A DNA stretch of 64,000 bases from Candidatus Sediminicultor quartus (GTDB taxonomy: Bacteria; Atribacterota; Phoenicimicrobiia; Phoenicimicrobiales; Phoenicimicrobiaceae). The stretch is from positions 7,699-71,698 of the forward strand of contig DSEL01000184.1 in NCBI GenBank assembly GCA_011056645.1, in the 5' to 3' direction. A model generated the notes under the pieces. That model did no database searches. It had not been told where the DNA came from and saw only the letters and a list, made by a program, of their open reading frames with translations. Below, piece by piece: positions 3,054 to 54,273 of this stretch (positions are counted from its first letter, which is position 1; the number at the start of each line of letters is the position of its first letter). The translations under genes were made by a program, and so were the position numbers.

Positions 3054-4298
3054 ATGATTCAACAAAATAGGATTTTTTTAACAATTTTAATCATTTTGTT
3101 GCTTTCTACTTCTGTATTAGCCGGAAGTTTTTCCGGTACTTTAACTTATTCCGGGCAATATAATTTTGCCCAAGATGAGCTGTCAAATACTCTAAATTTG
3201 GACCTTGACTATATTCATAGCCTCACCGACGATATCTTTGTAGAGGGAGATCTGCTCATTAGATATTCTGACAGTTCTTCTACCAATCCTCTGATGATTG
3301 TACCCAAGGAACTGTATATTGGCACTTATGACCTTATTATTCCTAATTTAGATTTAAACGCAGGCAGGCTGATTGTAAGCTGGGGTTCATCGGATATGTT
3401 TAGCCCTTTGGATAACTTTAATCCTTCGCCTCCCGGGATATCTTTTGCGGATAGATCCTCCAGAAAGAGCGGAGTCTGGGCGGTTGATGCAACTTATTAT
3501 CTCAATGATATCACCTATCTGCAGGGACTATATCTTCCTCATTTTACTCCCTCATTCATGCCTGCAGGGTATGAAGAACAATTATATCTTTCCATGTTTT
3601 CTCCGGGATTTCAGGCACAGGGAATAGAAATAGATTCTATTAATTTAGACCGTAGTCTTCCCAAAAAACCAGCATGGGGAGTGAAACTGGGAAGAAGTTT
3701 TTCTACTTTTGATGCAGCGATCAGTTATTATAACGGATATTATCCCTTTGCTTATCCTGCGTCGGTAGAGCTCACTCCCGGAACTTCCGGGACATCTTTG
3801 AATTTAGGGTTGGAGTATCCCAAGAGAGATATCTTTGGATTTGAATTCCAGGGAGATTTCCCGGGGATTGAAGGGGCTACTTTAAGAGGGGATTTAGCCT
3901 ATATCATCCCACAACCCTGGCAAGTACAGGGTGAAGATATGCTAAAAGATCCTTACCTGAAAGCAATAATTGGTGCGGATTATACTACTTCTTTTGACCT
4001 CTACCTGAATGTAGCTTTTATTTGGGGATTTATCCTTGAAGAAGGAAAGCAATGTTCCCCTTATATTTTACTAAATGCCGAAAAAGACTTGAAAGATTCC
4101 AAGCTCACTCCGAATTATGTAGGAGTAATAAACCTTCAAGACGGAAGCATGATAAATTCTCTCGGTGCCAGTTATGATTTCACCGATGATTTTTCAATGA
4201 CCCTCTCTTACGTTAAGATTTTTGGGGACCAGGATTCAAAGCTGGGGCAGGTAAAAAGCGCAGAGGGATTATATGTCTCAGCAGAGTGGTGTTTCTAA
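3054..4298 (+). CDS. secreted hypothetical protein, possibly outer-membrane beta-rich, associated with the MMPL exporter
   Basis: GAGGAGG RBS 6 nt upstream and a clear signal peptide (LLLSTSVLAGS). Rich in aromatic residues, Gly and Ser. No recognisable catalytic motif. Confidence 0.4.
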   Translation: MIQQNRIFLTILIILLLSTSVLAGSFSGTLTYSGQYNFAQDELSNTLNLDLDYIHSLTDDIFVEGDLLIRYSDSSSTNPLMIVPKELYIGTYDLIIPNLDLNAGRLIVSWGSSDMFSPLDNFNPSPPGISFADRSSRKSGVWAVDATYYLNDITYLQGLYLPHFTPSFMPAGYEEQLYLSMFSPGFQAQGIEIDSINLDRSLPKKPAWGVKLGRSFSTFDAAISYYNGYYPFAYPASVELTPGTSGTSLNLGLEYPKRDIFGFEFQGDFPGIEGATLRGDLAYIIPQPWQVQGEDMLKDPYLKAIIGADYTTSFDLYLNVAFIWGFILEEGKQCSPYILLNAEKDLKDSKLTPNYVGVINLQDGSMINSLGASYDFTDDFSMTLSYVKIFGDQDSKLGQVKSAEGLYVSAEWCF

Positions 4299-4885
4299 TG
4301 GATAGTGAAAAGATGAACAAAAAAGAAAAAATTTTAGAGGCTGCCCGGGATACGTTTTTTAGCAAGAGCTTCTACGAAGCCACCATGGATGATATCGCTC
4401 AGCTTTCCGGAATAAAAAAATCTACTATCTATTACTATTTTCCTTCTAAAATAGATTTGGCTTCAGAGCTTTTGGAGCAACATATAAAAAATATTTTTGA
4501 AAAGACCAGCGAAATAATTGATACCACCCATAATATTAAACTACGGATTAAAATGATCATAGACTTTTATCTAAAACTTTTAGCAGAAAATTCCAAAATA
4601 TTTATTATTCTGGAAAGAATTGCTTATGATTTTATGCAAAAAGACCACAGCAAAAAAAAGATAAATAAGCTCTTCGAAAAGTTAAGAGACAAACAGAAGA
4701 AATTGAGTGACCTCTTTGGAGACATCATCTTATCTTCCGGTAAAAAAGTAAGCGGAGATCTATTTTTATATTCCCTGGTTGCTGCCCTGGGAAGAGTTAT
4801 TTTTGAAAATGTGTCTCAAGGAAGAACTCCCAAGAAAGAGGATCTCCTGGCTATCGGCGATATTTTCATCGCCTCAGTAAATTGA
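4298..4885 (+). CDS. TetR/AcrR family transcriptional regulator
   Basis: N-terminal TetR HTH (ILEAARDTFFSKSFYEATMDDIAQLSGIKKSTIYYYFPSK). The start overlaps the preceding stop as TAATG. The TGA stop lies inside REP copy 4883-4909. Confidence 0.8.
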   Translation: MDSEKMNKKEKILEAARDTFFSKSFYEATMDDIAQLSGIKKSTIYYYFPSKIDLASELLEQHIKNIFEKTSEIIDTTHNIKLRIKMIIDFYLKLLAENSKIFIILERIAYDFMQKDHSKKKINKLFEKLRDKQKKLSDLFGDIILSSGKKVSGDLFLYSLVAALGRVIFENVSQGRTPKKEDLLAIGDIFIASVN

Positions 4886-4909
4886 TACAGAGAACCGTCC
4901 CCTGTATCA
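4883..4909 (+). repeat. REP-like 27-bp imperfect palindrome (TGATACAGAGAACCGTCCCCTGTATCA), copy 1
   Basis: 8-bp perfect inverted arms TGATACAG/CTGTATCA around an asymmetric 11-nt core. Identical to the copies at 9081 and 29397 and the reverse complement of 28476. Sits exactly between the convergent stops of the TetR and potC-like genes. Confidence 0.85.
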
Positions 4910-4912
4910 ATT

Positions 4913-5767
4913 CTATTCTTCTTTGCTTTTGAAATAAAAATTTCCGACGGCAATAATGGAAACAGTTACGATTAAAATAAAAGATATGGCATTGATAACC
5001 GGGGTAGACCCATCTCTTACCTGTTGATATAAAATGATAGGCAGGGTGGGTTGAGAGCTAATCAGGAATGTGGTGGTATTAAAATTCTCAAAGGACATCA
5101 GGAAGGCTATGGCTGCACCTCCTATAACCGAGGGCTTGAGATACTGAAGGGTAATAAACCAGATAACCGAAAATCGATTGGCGCCAAGATCGGACGCGGC
5201 TTCTTCAAGCGTTCTATCAAATTTTCTTAACCTTGCTGAAATAACCATGGTTACGATAGTGGTAATAAAGGAAAACTGACCAAGAACTATAAGCCAGAAA
5301 CCTGGCCTTAGTATTTTTATATCAATCCCAAAAACATTCTCAATAAATAATCCTACTGTAGTCGAGAATAAAAGTATGGATATACCGAGAATAACTCCCG
5401 GAATAACCAAGGGAGCGATCATTAAGAAATATAAAGCACCCTTAAATTTGAAATCTTCCTGTTCAAAGAGAAAAGCAGCCATCGTTCCGACAATAGTTGA
5501 AAAGATAGAAACTGAAATTGCTACTTTAAAGGAAGTAGCTATCGCCCTTAAATTCATTTTGTCATAAAATATACCAATTTTTTCAGGCCCTTTCCCAAAA
5601 AACCAATCAAAAGTAAACCCTTTCCAGGGCAAAGAGGGGAACATAGAATCATTAAAGGCCAGAATCATGGTGATAACCAGCGGAGCAAATAGAAAAATAA
5701 AATAGAAAAGTGCAAAAAGCCTGTAACCCGATAAATAACTTTTAGAATTTGGTAATGTTCTTATCAT
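4913..5767 (-). CDS. potC: ABC transporter permease, spermidine/putrescine PotC-like
   Basis: Six-TM permease with an EAA loop (EEAASDLGANRFSVIWFITLQYLKP). Last gene of a binding-protein/ATPase/permease/permease operon. Confidence 0.7.
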   Translation of the reverse strand: MIRTLPNSKSYLSGYRLFALFYFIFLFAPLVITMILAFNDSMFPSLPWKGFTFDWFFGKGPEKIGIFYDKMNLRAIATSFKVAISVSIFSTIVGTMAAFLFEQEDFKFKGALYFLMIAPLVIPGVILGISILLFSTTVGLFIENVFGIDIKILRPGFWLIVLGQFSFITTIVTMVISARLRKFDRTLEEAASDLGANRFSVIWFITLQYLKPSVIGGAAIAFLMSFENFNTTTFLISSQPTLPIILYQQVRDGSTPVINAISFILIVTVSIIAVGNFYFKSKEE

Positions 5768-9080: not shown

Positions 9081-9107
9081 TGATACAGAGAACCGTCCCC
9101 TGTATCA
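9081..9107 (+). repeat. REP-like 27-bp palindrome, copy 2
   Basis: Exact copy of TGATACAGAGAACCGTCCCCTGTATCA, ending 1 nt before the TAA stop of the kinase gene (9109-9111) and upstream of the potD-like promoter. Confidence 0.85.
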
Positions 9108-9108
9108 T

Positions 9109-10053
9109 TTATACACCATATTCTTCCTGAATAAATTTGATATTATTATGAGCATTTTCAAATTTCACTTTTCCGTAATTATAGAAATCGAATTTGATCT
9201 TGGAAATATTATTCTGGATCATGCTCCAAATGAACCAGAAAATGTCGGGAAAGGGTTTAAAAATATCAATCAGGTAGAGGGTTTTTTCGAACTCCTTGTC
9301 CTCACAGTAATGCCTTACTATACTTTTCTCTACATCTCGCGGAACTAAAATCTCCTGGAACATATCCGCCAGATCATAATAGCGAGGTGCCATCCCCGCA
9401 TACTCCCAGTCAATAAGATACATCGGTTCAGGATATCTTCCCCGATCAGCCTCATCTACCAGCACGAAATTATCCGCTAACAGATCATTATGGCTTGCCG
9501 TGTATTCACTCTCCGGAATATTGATCGTTTCGGCGATCTTTTCCAGGTTTTTAATTATACCATCAATATCAAACTCCGGACAACTAATCTCCAGATTGTT
9601 TAAGATCCTGTGCATCTCTTTCACTTTATTTAAAGGATTAAAGATTTGAGGGAACTCAACTCCACTTTGGTGAATTTTTCGTATTGGCCTGGCAATCTTT
9701 TCATGAAGCTCTTCCTTTAAGAAATCAGAGTTTTTTAATACATACCCCGGAATAAATTCTACAATGGTAACCCTATATTCAGGCATATATTTTACTAGTT
9801 TAGGTGAAATGCCTACCTTGGCTACTCTCCTCATGATTTCTGCTACGATGCTTCTACTAATGAAAGTCTCTGTTTTATCACCGTAGATTCTTATGGTAAG
9901 ATCCCCTTTTTCAGAACGCACCCGATACAATTTATTAGTAATACCACCACTTAATACACCTATCTTTATTGCTGTGTTCTTCCACTCTGGCATGAGTTTA
10001 AAAAATAGTTTTTCGGTAAACTCTACATCTAAAAGATTCGTGACTTCGCTCAT
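9109..10053 (-). CDS. choline/ethanolamine kinase family phosphotransferase (APH-fold)
   Basis: Brenner motif HNDLLADNFVL and the choline-kinase motif LIDWEYAGMAPRYYDLADMFQE. GGAGG RBS. Last gene of an ABC importer operon. Confidence 0.65.
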   Translation of the reverse strand: MSEVTNLLDVEFTEKLFFKLMPEWKNTAIKIGVLSGGITNKLYRVRSEKGDLTIRIYGDKTETFISRSIVAEIMRRVAKVGISPKLVKYMPEYRVTIVEFIPGYVLKNSDFLKEELHEKIARPIRKIHQSGVEFPQIFNPLNKVKEMHRILNNLEISCPEFDIDGIIKNLEKIAETINIPESEYTASHNDLLADNFVLVDEADRGRYPEPMYLIDWEYAGMAPRYYDLADMFQEILVPRDVEKSIVRHYCEDKEFEKTLYLIDIFKPFPDIFWFIWSMIQNNISKIKFDFYNYGKVKFENAHNNIKFIQEEYGV

Positions 10054-14073: not shown

Positions 14074-14495
14074 TTTTTCCTCCTTTTATAATTTCGAATT
14101 TATCGGCAGACACATTCTCTGCCCGAGCCAAAAAATGATTCACCACCTCCATTCATAATTACATAGCATGTCCGAAAACTTCGAGAACAGATAACTTCAG
14201 AAACAACCTAATTTAATCTTGAGCTTAGATTGTTGAGTATAAGAAATTATAAATCTTATATAGATTCTTAAATATTTCTAATCTTTCTTATCTTATATAT
14301 AGATGGTTTTTAAAATGCAGGCCCTTGGCTTTTAACCTAACCTTAATTCAGTTAGCTTTATTTTCTTTAGAGAAAGTGGGTATCTTTTCTGTATATATCT
14401 TGTTTAATTTTAACATAAATTCCAGTAGTAATAAAGGGGATTTTAGTCTTATAGCACTTTTTTTATCATTTAAAGTCATTCTCGGCTCAGATTAT

Positions 14496-14537
14496 AAGAA
14501 TAGATGCCCACGGTCATACCCGGGGGCATCTATTCTT
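14496..14537 (-). terminator. hairpin with 14-bp stem downstream of the transaldolase gene (possibly bidirectional)
   Basis: AAGAATAGATGCCC-14-nt loop-GGGCATCTATTCTT, just 3' of the stop at 14545. U/A-rich flanks on both strands. Confidence 0.45.
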
Positions 14538-14544
14538 ATTGATT

Positions 14545-26647: not shown

Positions 26648-28453
26648 TTAAGAATCCCCCAGGACGGCAATGGCCGCTCCGCCAATACCTATATGGATAC
26701 TCAAGGCAGGCGATGCTTCGGCGATCATTATTTTTGAAGTATTAAAGATGGCTCGAATTTTATTACTATACCATCCAGCCAATTCCGGTGCTGCTACATG
26801 AGCAATTGCAAAACGGGGATTTTTAACTCTTGTAGCAAACTGAATCGCCAAATCTACGGTCTTAAGAATTACTCTTTTTTGCCCTATCACTTTAGCTGCT
26901 TCGACAATGTTACCGTCAGAATTTAGCGTTAAAATGGGTTTCAGGTTAAGAAGCGTACCCAGAATTCCTTTGGCGATATTCAAGCGCCCGCTACGCATCA
27001 AATATTTTAAGGTAGGTATGCTGATAAAGATTTTAACATTTTCGGTAGCATCTTTTATCCGATCAATGATTTCTTCAAGGTTAAGTCTTTCTTGAATTAA
27101 TTGAGCTGCCTCGGCCACTAATAATCCCAAAGCAACCGAACTTGTTTTGCTATTTACAATGTGAATTCTATTGCTGTAATGCTTATCCTGGCAGCCCATA
27201 CGCGCACCCTGGATCGTTCCGCTTAATTTTTCAGAGATATGTAAAGAAATTATCGATTGATATTTTTGGACAATTTCCTTATAAGCTTCGGCAAAAAAAG
27301 CGGGAGGAGGCTGGGAAGTGGACAGCTTTTCCTGCGAGGTCTCTAAAATATGAATAAAATCTTTTGGTTTAATTTCTACCTGGTCCAAATAACTCTTTTC
27401 CCCAACCTGAATCACGACGGGTACAACTTTAATATTATATTTTTTAATGATCTCCAGCGGTAAATCACAAGTTGAATCGGTAACCAATCCTATACTTTCT
27501 CCGTGAGCATCCGCTTTAATCTTGGTATGTTGTTTACGCATATCATCAACTTTGGTTTTCACGATAGTTCCGCATTCAGACAATTCAGTAAATACATCCT
27601 CGGGGTTATCGGTGTGAATATGGATATGGGCTTTGTGTTCAGAGCCGGCAATAATCAGTGAATCTCCTAGGGAGGAAAGTTTTTGCCTCACTGTTCCCAG
27701 ATCTAAGTTAATTCCTTCCAGCAAGCATTCAGCACAGAACCGGAAATTAATTCCGGAATCAATTTTATCTAAATTAAAACTCCTTATTCTCTCGCCGGTA
27801 GAGCTAAGTACCTCTAATGATCTTACTTTACCGTATTCAATAAAATTAACGATCCCTTCCAAGATATTAACGAAACCCTGAGCTCCGGCATCAACTACCC
27901 CTGCTCTTTTTAATAGCAGCAGTTTATCGGGCGTTTTAGCCAGGGATTCCTTTGCTTTCGATAATGATTTTTTAAAAAGTTCCACAAAATCAGGGGTATA
28001 GGGAGCATTTTTTACCAGATGCTCCGCCCAGTCTTTCATTACCGTAATAATTGTTCCTTCTTGAGGCTGAGAAATGGCTTTCCGGGCTTGTTCCGCAGCC
28101 TTGATAGCTGCTTGAGCAAAGGATTCTGTGCTAAGACGTACTTTATCCTGGGTTGCTTCTGCCAGGCCTTGAAAAAATTGAGCCAAGATTGCTCCAGAGT
28201 TACCACGTGCTCCCATTAAAGCCGAATCGGCAATCACGCTGCTAACCCTGGCAAAAGAAGCATCTTTACATTTTTTTACCTCTTTTACAATATTGCTCAT
28301 GGTTGCTGCCAGATTCGTACCGGTGTCTCCATCAGCTACCGGAAAAACATTAATATCATTCAGATACTGCTCCATCTGATTGATACGTTGGGCGGAAGTG
28401 ATAATAAAACGCTTGAAGCGGATACCATTTATATATTTGATTTGAATTTTCAT
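26648..28453 (-). CDS. DAK2-domain protein with a C-terminal DegV-like domain (YloV/FakA-like fatty-acid kinase component)
   Basis: N-terminal Dak2 motif (VADGDTGTNLAAT...GARGNSGAILAQF). The C-terminal half resembles DegV (LVTDSTCDLPLEIIKKYNIKVVPV...). Confidence 0.65.
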   Translation of the reverse strand: MKIQIKYINGIRFKRFIITSAQRINQMEQYLNDINVFPVADGDTGTNLAATMSNIVKEVKKCKDASFARVSSVIADSALMGARGNSGAILAQFFQGLAEATQDKVRLSTESFAQAAIKAAEQARKAISQPQEGTIITVMKDWAEHLVKNAPYTPDFVELFKKSLSKAKESLAKTPDKLLLLKRAGVVDAGAQGFVNILEGIVNFIEYGKVRSLEVLSSTGERIRSFNLDKIDSGINFRFCAECLLEGINLDLGTVRQKLSSLGDSLIIAGSEHKAHIHIHTDNPEDVFTELSECGTIVKTKVDDMRKQHTKIKADAHGESIGLVTDSTCDLPLEIIKKYNIKVVPVVIQVGEKSYLDQVEIKPKDFIHILETSQEKLSTSQPPPAFFAEAYKEIVQKYQSIISLHISEKLSGTIQGARMGCQDKHYSNRIHIVNSKTSSVALGLLVAEAAQLIQERLNLEEIIDRIKDATENVKIFISIPTLKYLMRSGRLNIAKGILGTLLNLKPILTLNSDGNIVEAAKVIGQKRVILKTVDLAIQFATRVKNPRFAIAHVAAPELAGWYSNKIRAIFNTSKIMIAEASPALSIHIGIGGAAIAVLGDS

Positions 28454-28475
28454 TTAAAGCATCATCACCCCATTC

Positions 28476-28502
28476 TGATACAGGGGACGGTTCTCTGTAT
28501 CA
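28476..28502 (-). repeat. REP-like 27-bp palindrome, copy 3 (reverse-complement orientation: TGATACAGGGGACGGTTCTCTGTATCA)
   Basis: Exact reverse complement of the other three copies. 6 nt beyond the 3' end of the transposase gene. Confidence 0.85.
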
Positions 28503-28507
28503 TTTTA

Positions 28508-29317
28508 TTATTTTATTATTTGAACTGTTACCGGGCTAACTCTCAAAATATTTGCTATCTCTCGAATGGATAAATTAGAATTCAATTTCAAATAACTTAT
28601 CAGTTTGTTTCTATGAAATTGATACTTTCTTTCTTTTAAATTAGATAAACCAAAGTTATATTCTTTAAAATAATTTTGGATATATTGCTTTGCTCCTTTC
28701 TCATTAATCAAACTGTGGCTATATTTCTTGTCTTCTTCTGGTAATTCAATAATATTGCTTTTTTCTAGTCTATTCTGATGATGGTATCGAACAAATAAAT
28801 CAATCGCTTTGTCTTTATCCGGAGAAAATAAAGATAATATATGTTCAAGCTCAATTAAAAAGTTTTTCTGCGGTAATTTTGCAATATACAAACAGTAACT
28901 GCTCCAAGTATATTCTTCTAAATTATTAACCATAAAGGCATTTAATGGATTGTTATGAATATAACTCAGTACTGCCAATAAATAATTCTCATTTTCAATT
29001 GGTTCACTTTTAAAACGATCTTGAAAAAGATGACCAATCTGCTGATATTTCTTATTGAAGTAATTCACGTAGCTCACATTTATTCTTTTCATTGTCTGGG
29101 AAAGCTGTTCATCTTTTTCTTTAATTAACAGATGGACATGATTATTCATTAAACAATAAGCATAAATTATATATTCCCTTTTTTGTTTTACTTTTTTCAG
29201 TACTTTTATGAACTTGAATCTATCCTCATCTTCTAAAAATATATCTTGTTTCCGATTGCCGCGAATCATAACATGATAAATATTTGTTGAACTTAATTTT
29301 CGAGCTTTTCTTGGCAT
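28508..29317 (-). CDS. REP-associated tyrosine transposase (RAYT; IS200-like Y1/HUH transposase) with C-terminal HTH extension
   Basis: HUH motif (NNHVHLLIKE), a catalytic-Tyr region (LSYIHNNP), WSSY after the core domain, then an extra segment of about 110 aa ending in an HTH (LSIREIANILRVSPVTVQIIK). Confidence 0.7.
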   Translation of the reverse strand: MPRKARKLSSTNIYHVMIRGNRKQDIFLEDEDRFKFIKVLKKVKQKREYIIYAYCLMNNHVHLLIKEKDEQLSQTMKRINVSYVNYFNKKYQQIGHLFQDRFKSEPIENENYLLAVLSYIHNNPLNAFMVNNLEEYTWSSYCLYIAKLPQKNFLIELEHILSLFSPDKDKAIDLFVRYHHQNRLEKSNIIELPEEDKKYSHSLINEKGAKQYIQNYFKEYNFGLSNLKERKYQFHRNKLISYLKLNSNLSIREIANILRVSPVTVQIIK

Positions 29318-29396
29318 AATAATCTTCGTGCTACCTTTAATTGATTTTATTATTTAACATTATATCATAATATCATATTAATATATTTTTATCTTT

Positions 29397-29423
29397 TGAT
29401 ACAGAGAACCGTCCCCTGTATCA
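29397..29423 (+). repeat. REP-like 27-bp palindrome, copy 4
   Basis: Exact copy. Its last 3 nt (TCA) are the TGA stop codon of addA on the minus strand. Confidence 0.85.
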
Positions 29424-32400
29424 TTTTCCTACAAAATATATGCTGGTTTGTTTCACGGGCTCTCCGGAGATTTCCTGCCATACCCGGTGGTAAAGAGTGA
29501 TCTGCTTTTGATAGACCTCGACTAATTTAGGGTAATCCTTCTCCTGTTCGGGCCGATCAGTTTTGTAATCGATCACTACCCAGCCATCGGCTTCCTTAAA
29601 GACCAGGTCGATCGTCCCAGACAGGATTATAGGGCAGGAATCATGACCCTCTAATTGGCTAAAAAGAGGATGAGCGGGTCCGATATGGAGTGTAAAGGGG
29701 ACTTCGCTATATTTAAACTCTGCTTTTTTTAGACGCTTAAATAAATCACTCACTTTAAATTTTTTGACCAGCTCTTCTAATTCTGCTTTTCTCCGGGGAG
29801 ATATTCCCTGATTTTCCAGAACTTTTTCTATCTGTAAAGACAATAACTGTTCATCAGGCTCTTTCTTCACTAAATAATCAAAGATTTTATGAACGGCAGT
29901 CCCCCAGGCAGTCCCGCCAACATCAATGGTAGTAATCTTTAGGTGTTTTTCTTCATCCTTAAAATCCGTCGGGGTCTTCTCATCATAACTAATTTTAGAT
30001 AGATCCTTCAGCCATTGCCCGCATTCCTTTTGCATTTTTGCATAATCTTCAAGCAAAGATTCTTTTTCTTTGGCTTTTTCTTTTCCTTTTCCTTCTATTT
30101 CCCCCATTTCCCCCGGAGACAACAATTCCGCTTCCGGGACAGCGATATTCATCTCATCTCTCATATTTTTCAATAAAGGCTGCCAGGGATTATGCTTATT
30201 GCCCTTATGATTTAAACTGCTGATAACCAAAAGATTCTTAGCCCGGGTGGCCGCTACATAGAGCAGTCGGATATCCTCTGCTTCATGGTAAGAGGTCTCA
30301 AGCTGACCATAATCATCCCAATTTTTAGGTTGAGCTAATCTTTTCCCTTTATGGTAAGCATTGGAACGGCATACCAAAAAATGGCCGTACGGTTGCTCTC
30401 CCGTTCTTTCCACATGATAAGTTGGTTCATGGACAGCAGTATTATAAGGAATAGCTAAAAATACTACCGGAGATTCCAGGCCTTTAGCTTTATGTAAATT
30501 CATAATCCGGACAGTATTTTCTTCGGTTAGTATATCCAATTCCTCTTCGATCCCGGCTTCTAACATCTTCTCCAATTGGTCTACCATGGCAGCAAATCCT
30601 ATCATTTCTTCTGTCTCTGCTTTTCTTAATTTCTCCAGAATAAAATAGAGCTCCCCGCATCGGTTTAGGTTATAACCTTCTAAACAGGAGTGAGGAAGTA
30701 AGCCTGAATCAATCATGATCTTTTCCATTGTTGTAACCGGTGGCAGTTCTTGAGACCAGAGATGGAATTGTCTCAGCCGGCCAAAAACTCTCCTAAAATT
30801 CTCTTTTAGTTTTGGACTTAGCTTTTCCGGTATCTTTTCATAAAAATCAAATTCTCCGCCTGATTCTTTAAAATGATATAAGTCATCATCAGAAAATCCA
30901 AAGAATATCCCGCGCAGAACGGCGATGATCAGCACCTGATTTTCTATATCCCTCAGTAAGCGAAATAACTTTAATAATTCTTTTACCTGTGGGGATGCAT
31001 TTAAAGAGGCGTATCCTGAGATCGTAAAGGGTATTCCCTGCTCTGCCAGCGTGCGGGCATAGATATCCATCCCTCCTTTATAGCGTAGAAGGATCATAAA
31101 GTCCTTATAAGTGGCTTGCAGTGAAGTACCTGCTTTTATCTCTTCTTCGGTCCGCCCTAATTGAAATCCCTTATCGACCATAAGACGAATAACCCGGGCA
31201 ATCAATTGGGCATCCTGCCGGATCGTATCATTCTTGTTGGATTCTTTTGAAATAATGAGCTGCCTTACCCCGGAAAGATAATGGTTTGGGTCATCTTCCC
31301 GAATGGTCTGCATCGGTGAATATACCGCCTGAAATTTTTCCTGACCACCGGAAAATAATTCTTCAAATAGAGGGTTGAGATAAGAACCGATAGAATGCAG
31401 CGAGCGAAAATTAGCCTGCAATTTTAAAACCTTTCCTCCGCTTCTTTCAATCAACTCCCTTACCCGATTATAGATGGCAATATCTGCCCGACGAAAGCGA
31501 TAGATAGACTGCTGGGGATCCCCTACCACAAATAAGGAACCGGGATGCGGTATCAATTTAGTCCAGTTCTTTTCCTTAAAATCCGAACCGGTAAGATAGA
31601 AGATTATTTCTGCCTGAATAGGGTCGGTATCTTGAAATTCATCTACCAGCAGGCATTTATATTTTTGCTGAAAATATTGGCGTACTTCAGGATGTTCCCT
31701 TAATAGCTGAGAGGTCTTTAAGAGCAAATCCTGAAAATTAAGCATCGAGATCTTCTGGCGCAATTGGTGATAATATTCCACTGCGGGCAGAAGGAATTTG
31801 ATGGTATCGGCATAACAATATTCCCGCCATTGCTGCAAGGTCGGATTAATCACTTTTTCCTGAAGTTCTAAAACAAGGGAATCTCTATACTCTTTGGCCT
31901 TTTCTTTGGAAGTCCAGCGGTTTAAAGTAATATGGTTCGATTTAGGGCTAAAATCACCTGCAAAATTTTCCAGTAATTTTATCTGATTAAAATCTTCTCT
32001 CATATAATCATAAAACCCCTTCATCCTTTTAACGCTTAAAACGGCTTCTTGTAATTGATCATAACCCATTTTCGGTTCTTCCTCCGGGATATATGGGCTG
32101 GCTTCATCACTAAAAGATATGATCTCTTTGACCGCTTTTTTTATATCCGGTTTTGGTAAAACGGGGAAAGAAGGATTAACTTCCGGATAAGCGCACAGCG
32201 TTTTATAACAATCGGTCAGTTCGGAGGGCTTTATGCCTAATTCTTCCAGATGGAGGAGAGAAGGAGATTCTTCTATCTTAAGATTAAGCAGATACCTTTT
32301 CCAGGCTTCTTCTTTCAATAAAATATCATCAAGGTCATCCAGCTCGGCAAATTCCGGGTCGAGCCCGGCTTCGATCGGCCTTTCCCTTAATAGGCGGGCG

Positions 32401-32741
32401 CAAAAAGAATGAATAGTCCCCAGGTAACAGTGCTCAATATTGGAAAGGGCTTCCCGCAAATAAGCCTTTTCCTTTTGGTTTTCTGTTTCACGAAAACTCT
32501 CTTCAATTTTTTTTTGAAACCTTTCTTTTAATTCGATTGCTGCTTTTCTGGTGAAGGTAATAGCGGCCACTTCATCCACTTTAAATTTTCCCGACTTAAT
32601 TAAAGCAGTCATACGCTGGATCAAGCTGGAAGTCTTCCCCGAGCCGGCACTTGCCTCGACTAAAATATTAGTGTTTAATTCTTGTACAATTTTTTCCCGA
32701 GCTTCCTGATCAATTAATTTTTGGGGGGAATGATCATTCAT
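29421..32741 (-). CDS. addA: ATP-dependent helicase/nuclease subunit A (AddA; UvrD-like helicase with C-terminal PD-(D/E)xK nuclease)
   Basis: Walker A (EASAGSGKTSSL), UvrD-type helicase motifs, and a C-terminal RecB-nuclease motif (GTIDLVFKEADGWVVIDYKTD). Confidence 0.8.
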   Translation of the reverse strand: MNDHSPQKLIDQEAREKIVQELNTNILVEASAGSGKTSSLIQRMTALIKSGKFKVDEVAAITFTRKAAIELKERFQKKIEESFRETENQKEKAYLREALSNIEHCYLGTIHSFCARLLRERPIEAGLDPEFAELDDLDDILLKEEAWKRYLLNLKIEESPSLLHLEELGIKPSELTDCYKTLCAYPEVNPSFPVLPKPDIKKAVKEIISFSDEASPYIPEEEPKMGYDQLQEAVLSVKRMKGFYDYMREDFNQIKLLENFAGDFSPKSNHITLNRWTSKEKAKEYRDSLVLELQEKVINPTLQQWREYCYADTIKFLLPAVEYYHQLRQKISMLNFQDLLLKTSQLLREHPEVRQYFQQKYKCLLVDEFQDTDPIQAEIIFYLTGSDFKEKNWTKLIPHPGSLFVVGDPQQSIYRFRRADIAIYNRVRELIERSGGKVLKLQANFRSLHSIGSYLNPLFEELFSGGQEKFQAVYSPMQTIREDDPNHYLSGVRQLIISKESNKNDTIRQDAQLIARVIRLMVDKGFQLGRTEEEIKAGTSLQATYKDFMILLRYKGGMDIYARTLAEQGIPFTISGYASLNASPQVKELLKLFRLLRDIENQVLIIAVLRGIFFGFSDDDLYHFKESGGEFDFYEKIPEKLSPKLKENFRRVFGRLRQFHLWSQELPPVTTMEKIMIDSGLLPHSCLEGYNLNRCGELYFILEKLRKAETEEMIGFAAMVDQLEKMLEAGIEEELDILTEENTVRIMNLHKAKGLESPVVFLAIPYNTAVHEPTYHVERTGEQPYGHFLVCRSNAYHKGKRLAQPKNWDDYGQLETSYHEAEDIRLLYVAATRAKNLLVISSLNHKGNKHNPWQPLLKNMRDEMNIAVPEAELLSPGEMGEIEGKGKEKAKEKESLLEDYAKMQKECGQWLKDLSKISYDEKTPTDFKDEEKHLKITTIDVGGTAWGTAVHKIFDYLVKKEPDEQLLSLQIEKVLENQGISPRRKAELEELVKKFKVSDLFKRLKKAEFKYSEVPFTLHIGPAHPLFSQLEGHDSCPIILSGTIDLVFKEADGWVVIDYKTDRPEQEKDYPKLVEVYQKQITLYHRVWQEISGEPVKQTSIYFVGK

Positions 32742-53894: not shown

Positions 53895-54010
53895 GTTTAA
53901 ATTAATCAGGTGTTTTATTTATATATAAATATTCTACAAGTTTTTCAAAAATCCTCTTTTTTTTATAAAATTAGATAAAATTTTTGTTTTTTATTGAAAC
54001 ACTTTATTAT

Positions 54011-54273
54011 TAGTCGTTAGTGAATGGTGAATAGTTGTTAGTTTTAAATACAATTTATGAAGTGCGAGTTTATTCATTCTGCCGATCTACCAGTTTTCCT
54101 GTCGACCAGTCAATTTGGTTGTTAGTTTAAAAGGTTTTCAGTTACAAGAGGTCGATTCATCAAACCCATCTGTTTTTTTCTGTCATTGCGAAATGACCAA
54201 AGTGATCTCATTTTGTATCTTAAATTTATTCTCCGTATTTCCTTCACCAAATACTAACGACTAACGACTATTC
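54011..54273. repeat. approximately 260-bp intergenic element bounded by inverted GAATAGTYGTTAGT-type repeats (MITE-like or structured sRNA candidate)
   Basis: Left end is tagtcgttagtgaatggtgaatagttgttagtt (54011-54043). Right end is actaacgactaacgactattc (54253-54273), the reverse complement of gaatagtcgttagtcgttagt. An internal copy gttgttagtt sits at 54118-54127. Confidence 0.45.

Follow-up and report, generated by a model that had tools for sequence, protein, structure and literature searches.

Within a stretch of 64,000 nucleotides of Candidatus Sediminicultor quartus (contig DSEL01000184.1, positions 7,699 to 71,698), hereafter called the window, one gene on the minus strand (28508..29317) encodes a 269-residue protein related to the RAYTs, i.e., the tyrosine transposases associated with repetitive extragenic palindromes (REPs). 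As deduced from the open reading frame (ORF), Pfam, NCBIfam and homologues, the protein consists of a TnpA-REP-like Y1/HUH nuclease and a C-terminal helix-turn-helix (HTH) domain. A 27-nt hairpin repeat flanks the gene on both sides in exact, inverted copies, and two further exact copies of this repeat are present in the window, where none is expected by chance. With moderate confidence, we interpret the arrangement as a REPtron, i.e., a single-copy, vertically inherited HTH-class Y1 nuclease with its cognate hairpin, which would act by the mechanism proposed below and would repress its own gene. The identity of the parts, i.e., an HTH-class Y1 nuclease, a fold like that of DnaA domain IV in the tail, and a cognate hairpin repeat, is considered very probable. 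The role that is assigned below to the HTH may well be correct, but is put forward with slightly more doubt than confidence.

The hairpin repeat and its link to the gene

The REP upstream of the gene, the imperfect palindrome TGATACAGAGAACCGTCCCCTGTATCA (29397..29423, plus strand), is located 79 nt before the ATG start codon. The downstream REP (28476..28502, minus strand), an inverted copy with 100% complementarity over the 27 nt, is found 5 nt past the stop codon. Two solo REPs are located on the plus strand at 4883..4909 and 9081..9107. All four copies lie at gene ends. The palindrome starts with TGA on either strand, and two of the copies provide an adjacent gene with its TGA stop codon: the final three bases of the upstream REP terminate the helicase gene 29421..32741 (minus strand), and the first three bases of the solo copy at 4883..4909 terminate ORF 4286..4885 (plus strand). 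The latter copy occupies the 27-nt gap between this ORF and the convergent ORF 4913..5767 (minus strand), and the other solo copy is separated by 1 nt from the stop codon of ORF 9109..10053 (minus strand). Inverted palindromic repeats that flank a gene and are dispersed in the genome are the mark of a REPtron, and this is the arrangement found here. The foot sequence GTAG or GTGG of REPs is not present in the four window copies, which read (A/T)(A/T)(A/T)TGATACAG. No Rfam family covers the REPs or the gene and, therefore, the hairpin does not correspond to a described RNA element. A literature search for the repeat sequence yielded no report of the repeat, its sole match being an unrelated paper on C. 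elegans. The possibility that the downstream REP is a transcription terminator was rejected, since it is terminator-like only on the plus strand, whereas the local genes are on the minus strand.

In Formimonas warabiya, Methylomusa anaerophila, and Maledivibacter halophilus, homologues of the gene (47-48% identity) have hairpins in the same flanking arrangement. The hairpins at these three loci have GGGACGGTTC in common; their lower stems differ but are self-complementary. The metagenomic homologue loci with a complete ORF and sufficient flanking sequence numbered 63. The motif GGGAC[GC]GTT upstream and/or AAC[GC]GTCCC just downstream was found at 39 of these loci, and both motifs at 29, against 3 and 5 matches in the control orientation and a chance expectation of ~0.02 per flank. 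When the loci were divided by tail type with a narrow profile, called A2, 20 loci with and 3 without the REP had this tail, as compared with 19 with and 21 without among the other loci (p 0.003). The test underestimates the link because the A2 profile misses divergent tails of the type LSIRQLSRLTGIS. Inspection of the C-termini showed that nearly all REP-positive genes encode a short HTH tail. No REP cores were found in the flanks of two classes with other tails, i.e., proteins of 309-344 aa (ending, for instance, in "...REIAxYLRKDPSVVTRYL...") and of 279-284 aa ("HFGVHYTTVSRLV", "HFGVHYTTVSR"). Thus, the co-variation of extension and REP among homologues, for which the preliminary description had suggested a comparison, is seen at a coarse level, at which it is confounded with phylogeny. 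The loci of the other C-terminal classes are L167, L183, L184, L186, L194, L196, L202-L205, and L209, and L197, L200, L201, L207, and L208. The tail of the 309-344-aa class is longer and DnaA_C-like, and its flanks, as those of the 279-284-aa class, are without the GGGACGGTT hairpin.

In a scan of the GTDB species genomes, the 19-nt core ACAGAGAACCGTCCCCTGT was found in at least 120 stretches; as only exact matches were scanned for, the search itself accounts in part for the invariance of the 19 positions. Among the matches listed, the carriers of the core are Lachnospiraceae, Oscillospiraceae, Acutalibacteraceae, Syntrophomonadaceae, Atribacterota, and single metagenome-assembled genomes (MAGs) of Desulfovibrio and Flexilinea. 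The apical 11-19 nt of the hairpin are invariant in sequence across phyla, and the lower stem is kept as base pairs only. Base pairing extends beyond the fixed core for three to four more positions on either side, which are paired in 87-89% of 175 instances (67% for the fourth pair), and the pairs in this outer stem are of many types. The number of cells with double changes amounts to 88, as compared with 30.6 ± 6.3 in shuffled sets, none of which out of 500 reached 88, and the covariation score is 0.289 versus at most 0.073 for slid partners. This covariation of the outer stem indicates that the repeat is selected as a hairpin. Its two strands fold differently, the G-rich strand into a continuous stem with G·T pairs and the C-rich strand into a stem with internal mismatches.

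Pairs of copies within 300 nt of each other show a preferred orientation: 26 pairs are "-+", the orientation that also brackets the gene, none is "+-", and the "++" and "--" orientations occur five times each. The close "-+" pairs are doublets like REPINs (REP doublets forming hairpins), or REPtrons without a gene. Besides inverted doublets, some MAGs of Lachnospiraceae contain head-to-tail arrays of up to three copies with a spacing down to 24 nt and, in some cases, partial copies in between (L015, 2197-2239; L060, 853-1073; L116, 1332-1399; L089, 2550-2734).

Inheritance and mobility

The RAYT-like gene is present in one copy in the window, and its homologue in the complete Formimonas genome is found at one place. 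It is flanked by genes for a UvrD/PD-(D/E)XK helicase-nuclease and a Dak2-DegV protein, and it has no tnpB partner. In two related Atribacterota (L130 and L131), the gene is found between the same two neighbors. In comparison with positions 26648-32741 of the window, the RAYT-like gene shows 90% and 82% amino-acid identity in L130 and L131, respectively, versus 73% and 69% for the helicase-nuclease and 80% and 77% for the Dak2-DegV protein. The fixed locus and an identity above that of the neighbors argue for vertical inheritance under a constraint stronger than that on the adjacent housekeeping genes. On plasmids, any match to the gene was found in only 21 of 72,556 records, and one match was full-length. 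A single copy, vertical inheritance, and rarity on plasmids are characteristic of RAYTs (Bertels et al., 2017), and all three apply here.

The perfect inverted repeats that bound the gene also raise the possibility that the 948-bp unit of REP, gene, and REP is an active element resembling an insertion sequence (IS), i.e., a TIRtron, in which the HTH would bind the terminal inverted repeats (TIRs), as usual in a transposase that moves its own gene. Several short-read contigs run exactly from REP to REP (950 bp in L002 and 949 bp in L003; the contig of L127, at 912 bp, is also short), and the occurrence of the family is patchy across several phyla, as might be expected for such an element. However, the contigs of ~950 bp are explained equally well, and most simply, by assembly graphs that break at a repeat of 27-32 nt, and a mobile element would be difficult to reconcile with the single genomic place in the window and in Formimonas, with the conserved locus between two neighbors of 69-80% identity, and with the scarcity on plasmids. 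An active TIRtron is, therefore, very unlikely, and the one genomic place, the rarity on plasmids, and the synteny led to the rejection of a lifestyle on plasmids or as an IS-like element for the lineage of the window. The repeat has consequences for annotation and assembly, as it provides neighboring genes with stop codons and breaks short-read assemblies at its copies; for many close homologues, contigs of ~1 kb are the only source.

The TIRYTs were described as RAYT-like genes that are longer than those of RAYTs and are flanked by inverted repeats without a GTAG tag; some of these TIRs are self-complementary and repeated in the genome as dimers or clusters, and many contain GGGGWSAS (PMC3733652). 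A long RAYT-like gene and inverted repeats without GTAG are also found here, and GGGGACGG in the repeat matches GGGGWSAS at seven of the eight positions. The TIRYT examples considered here are from Proteobacteria and Acidobacteria, and the terms "Firmicutes" and "Clostridi-" are absent from the main text of that paper. A C-terminal HTH is not discussed for TIRYTs in that text, and the repeat described here differs in being a compact hairpin of 27 nt with a core that is constant across phyla.

The catalytic domain and its tail

Residues 1-181 of the protein (28775..29317, minus strand) constitute a complete TnpA-REP-like catalytic domain with an intact HUH motif (H60-V-H62; 29132-29140) and an intact catalytic tyrosine (Tyr119; 28961-28963), and nuclease activity is predicted. 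The ORF starts with ATG and ends with ...LSIREIANILRVSPVTVQIIK before the stop codon, in agreement with the length and C-terminus given in the preliminary description. Pfam Y1_Tnp matches residues 13-123 (E 7.6e-16), and the NCBIfam profile REP_Tyr_transpos (NF047646) matches residues 6-139 with 74.6 bits, just below its curated cutoff of 80, whereas the profile transpos_IS200 (NF033573) scores 17.9 bits and does not reach its cutoff of 55. The AlphaFold2 (AF2) model of the full-length protein has a predicted local distance difference test (pLDDT) score of 85 and shows a beta-alpha core followed by helices through residue 181. Its top match in Foldseek is 4ER8, i.e., E. coli TnpA-REP with a bound REP (E 7e-8; TM score 0.73 on the target), and the TnpA proteins of ISDra2 and IS608 come next (E about 1e-4). 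The extension had been described as starting after the WSSY motif (W138-S-S-Y141), with a length of ~110 aa (28508-28870, residues about 150-269). However, because the Foldseek alignment covers 160 columns of the 165-residue chain of 4ER8, the structured residues 142-181 are part of the TnpA-REP-like domain. Residues 1-181 thus represent a full RAYT, and although the tail is real, the true add-on measures ~88 aa, consisting of a linker and a domain of 67 aa.

The linker (residues 182-202; 28712..28774, minus strand) is rich in K, E, and N and flexible, as judged from pLDDT and alignment. The pLDDT is 60 and 37 in the blocks that make up residues 181-200 and remains below 50 at residues 191-201, i.e., this part is disordered in the model, and the alignment of homologues shows low conservation and indels. 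The linker is followed by a short helical domain (residues 203-269; 28511..28711, minus strand) with a helical bundle at residues 206-267, which includes the HTH helices at residues 251-258 and 262-267 (28517-28567, minus strand) of the AF2 model. Hence, the succession of a K/N/E-rich linker and an HTH, which had been read from the sequence, was recovered in the predicted structure.

A search of 5.8 billion proteins yielded 3,723 relatives. Nearly all of the best 120 of these have a length of 264-284 aa and align over 97% or more of the query. Their sources extend from MAGs of Caldatribacteriota (with identities of up to 87%) to Sporomusa, Methylomusa, Formimonas, Thermotalea, and Maledivibacter (about 47-49%). 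In an alignment of 75 sequences, H60, H62, Y119, W138, and S140 are invariant, and S139 and Y141 occur in 90% or more of the sequences. The same level is reached by R236, L249, and S250 of the tail, whose R252 and L258 are present in all sequences. The preliminary description had named the absence of an HTH fold, or a frameshift or fusion with a neighboring ORF, as outcomes that would speak against a genuine extension. The HTH is predicted, as discussed above, and an artefact in which a frameshift or sequencing error had joined a RAYT to a small HTH gene next to it was excluded: the relatives from many independent assemblies and phyla have the same length, the alignment is continuous with conserved columns, and the identical protein was found on seven independent contigs. 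Nothing was found in favor of such an artefact, and its probability is next to nil. A match of a different kind was obtained with positions 102-188 of the family profile, which comprise the helix with the catalytic tyrosine, the WSSY motif, and the next helices. They match structures of Cas12X and Cas12X2 (PDB 9ix6_A and 8zqc_A, residues 130-217 and 352-439; E 0.006-0.007), and the aligned motif ends with ...VWS. This match could be the remnant of a segment like that of Y1 TnpA, or due to chance.

Residues 203-269 show the fold of domain IV of DnaA (Bac_DnaA_C, PF08299) in a truncated form on a flexible linker. The protein terminates eight residues into the recognition helix, and the tail is ~30 residues shorter than DnaA domain IV. 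This likeness is one of fold only. Scans of the tail of the single protein against Pfam and NCBIfam produced only sub-threshold matches to generic HTHs (residues 236-266 in Pfam), and Pfam Bac_DnaA_C matched neither the protein nor its 75 aligned sequences. Weak matches to HTH_23 and HTH_28 were found in 23 and 10 of the 75 sequences, respectively. A profile of the tail matched just GntR-, MarR-, AsnC-, and HipB-type HTHs in the PDB, with E values of 0.0025 or worse, which is uninformative beyond the term HTH. Among 1.84 billion representative proteins, the profile matched 335. In the best 150 of these, the tail domain forms the C-terminal end of a protein of ~250-275 aa, or the match is to a fragment, and no protein of the length of DnaA (about 400-500 aa) is present, which speaks for an extension that is conserved and confined to this family. 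In one protein of 719 aa (P0197), the 67-aa tail profile is matched at six separate places; it is apparently a multi-HTH protein and unlike the RAYT class in length. Finally, hhalign of the tail profile with an approximate sequence of E. coli DnaA domain IV gave a probability of 0.7%, which is not significant. As Pfam, the PDB profile search, the search of representatives, and hhalign were all without a signal, no sequence homology to DnaA is claimed. Of the HTH types that had been suggested for the tail, i.e., sigma-70 region-4, LuxR, and DnaA-C, the last was right with respect to the fold, but no link to DnaA was found at the sequence level.

Most likely, the protein belongs to subclass 2.1.2 of the TnpA-Y1 proteins, an assignment to this previously defined subclass (Quentin et al., 2018) that is based on shared features. 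Subclass 2.1, which ranks second in size, was found in 14.9% of the strains, and its C-terminal extension, which resembles Bac_DnaA_C, HTH_23, or HTH_28, was considered to represent "long and short versions of an ancestral HTH" (PMC6006769). The core is followed by a short motif that contains Ser, and the subclass was equated with the TIRYTs of Di Nocera et al. (2013) (PMC6006769). The Y1/HUH TnpA-REP core, the Ser motif, here WSSY, and an HTH-type extension are shared with the protein described here, and so are a length well over that of canonical RAYTs and a patchy distribution across phyla. The weak matches to HTH_23 and HTH_28 mentioned above fit with the short version of the HTH. Thus, the extension is not unusual, as it had been called, since HTH tails had already been described for this subclass (PMC6006769); the combination of a RAYT and an HTH at the C-terminus was known before and alone changes nothing. 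The difference lies in the repeats. Neither automatic nor manual searches revealed REP-like sequences near subclass 2.1 genes, the automatic search having started from canonical REPs, which have a 5' GT[AG]G foot (PMC6006769), whereas a dispersed hairpin with covariation flanks the gene in the window and most of its relatives. Because the subclass was reported to be without REPs, this association is the modestly new part, together with the constancy of the core across phyla. Also, a RAYT of "Group 1" was reported in Proteobacteria and Clostridia, with flanking 16-mers that are moderately repeated (Bertels et al., 2017).

The best structural match to residues 1-181, E. coli TnpA-REP, is also encoded by a single-copy gene between inverted REPs. 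As with the REPs, REPINs, and bacterial interspersed mosaic elements (BIMEs) of E. coli, the repeats described here lie at the 3' ends of genes and have a fixed orientation in doublets, and inheritance is vertical. However, E. coli TnpA-REP consists of 165 aa without an HTH and reads the 5' GT[AG]G foot of the REP, a tag that is missing here, and canonical REP sequences are lineage-specific, whereas the present core is common across phyla. The HUH/Y1 fold is shared with the TnpA proteins of the IS200/IS605 family (IS608 and ISDra2), and IS608 TnpA recognizes imperfect hairpins in single-stranded DNA. In contrast to the genes of this family, the gene in the window is without tnpB, single-copy, and syntenic, and the protein has an extra C-terminal domain.

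Proposed recognition of the repeat

The proposed REPtron would be laid out as REP, promoter, gene, and inverted REP. The Y1 domain would bind the folded single-stranded hairpin and cut and rejoin the adjoining DNA, like E. coli TnpA-REP and IS608 TnpA, and these reactions could generate and maintain the solo REPs and the REPIN-like doublets. The tethered HTH might read the bases of the stem duplex GGGGAC/GTTCT, be it within the hairpin or as double-stranded DNA. Such reading would explain why the core is frozen even between proteins with 35-50% identity, while canonical REPs drift with their RAYT. Since the promoter of the gene is adjacent to the upstream REP or overlaps with it, the same binding probably represses the gene. 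More generally, we tentatively suggest that the class of HTH-bearing RAYTs maintains its own REPIN-like hairpins in Clostridia, Atribacterota, and other anaerobes, the tail reading the apical stem GGGGAC-G-GTTCT, unlike the GTAG-foot reading of canonical RAYTs, and that this accounts for the occurrence of one core across phyla.

Several observations weigh against this interpretation. The target of the HTH is one that we infer, and the connection of the tail with DnaA is one of fold, on which the sequence methods are silent. The recognition helix is very short. It reads S-x-V-T-V-Q in the Atribacterota clade but R-N-I-V-Q-R in the Firmicutes clade, although the two clades have the apical REP core in common; therefore, the helix may not read the core. 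The asymmetry of the repeat and the covariation of its stem argue for recognition of a single-stranded hairpin, of which the Y1 domain alone may be capable, as in E. coli TnpA-REP. The constancy of the core is also narrower in homologue flanks that were collected independently of the exact scan, where only about 11-12 nt are constant, and the link between tail type and REP is confounded with whole-protein phylogeny, as mentioned above. Finally, the promoter-like site of the window does not overlap with the REP.

In the homologues of Formimonas and Methylomusa, the best sigma-70-like promoter has its -35 sequence, TTGACT, within the 3' arm of the upstream REP, followed at 17-18 nt by a TG-extended -10 sequence (L124, 1949-1977; L128, 1941-1970; 10 and 11 of 12 matches, respectively). 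The position of this -35 sequence suggests autoregulation via the repeat. The HTH might even be purely an autorepressor or regulator that binds the double-stranded palindrome at its own promoter as a dimer, with the core as a 9+1+9 operator, and leaves the hairpin to the Y1 domain. In the 19-bp core, the half-sites of an imperfect inverted repeat are spaced by 10 bp, which would suit such an operator, and the gene is single-copy and slowly evolving. Self-repression is common among transposases. However, no good promoter overlaps with the REP in L129 or in the window, where a weak promoter-like site that is a mere consensus match (29349..29376, minus strand; 9 of 12 matches) is located between the upstream REP and the gene. 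Furthermore, the same core is present in hundreds of solo REPs and in the REP downstream of the gene, so binding would not be specific for the promoter, and a double-stranded operator would not need the asymmetry of the strands or the covariation of the stem. A role restricted to autorepression is, therefore, considered unlikely. In the REPtron interpretation, repression of its own gene would probably be an additional activity of the HTH.

For the DnaA-like domain of subclass 2.1, targeting of the nuclease to replication forks or origin-type DNA was proposed (PMC6006769). If this applied here, with a fork, origin-like DNA, or a host protein instead of the REP as the target, the match of the fold with DnaA domain IV would be explained, and variation of the recognition-helix residues between clades with one REP core would be no surprise. 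The domain, however, is truncated, shows no significant resemblance to DnaA in sequence, and does not demonstrably retain the DnaA signature residues. Also, a comparison of sequences showed that the REP core is unlike the DnaA box, which is not the likely target, and the link between tail type and REP core would be left unexplained. Targeting of this kind is regarded as quite improbable. Should the HTH indeed read the core, the REPtron would offer a compact and testable system for the choice of a repeat by a domesticated Y1 nuclease, and it would bear on gene regulation and on the question of why REP cores usually diverge, yet are frozen here.

The window contains two other palindromic structures that are unrelated to the REP, i.e., an inverted repeat with arms of 22 nt at 54010-54031 and 54243-54264, which are 86% complementary and 211 nt apart, and a tight hairpin at 14494-14539 with arms of 20 nt that are 95% complementary.

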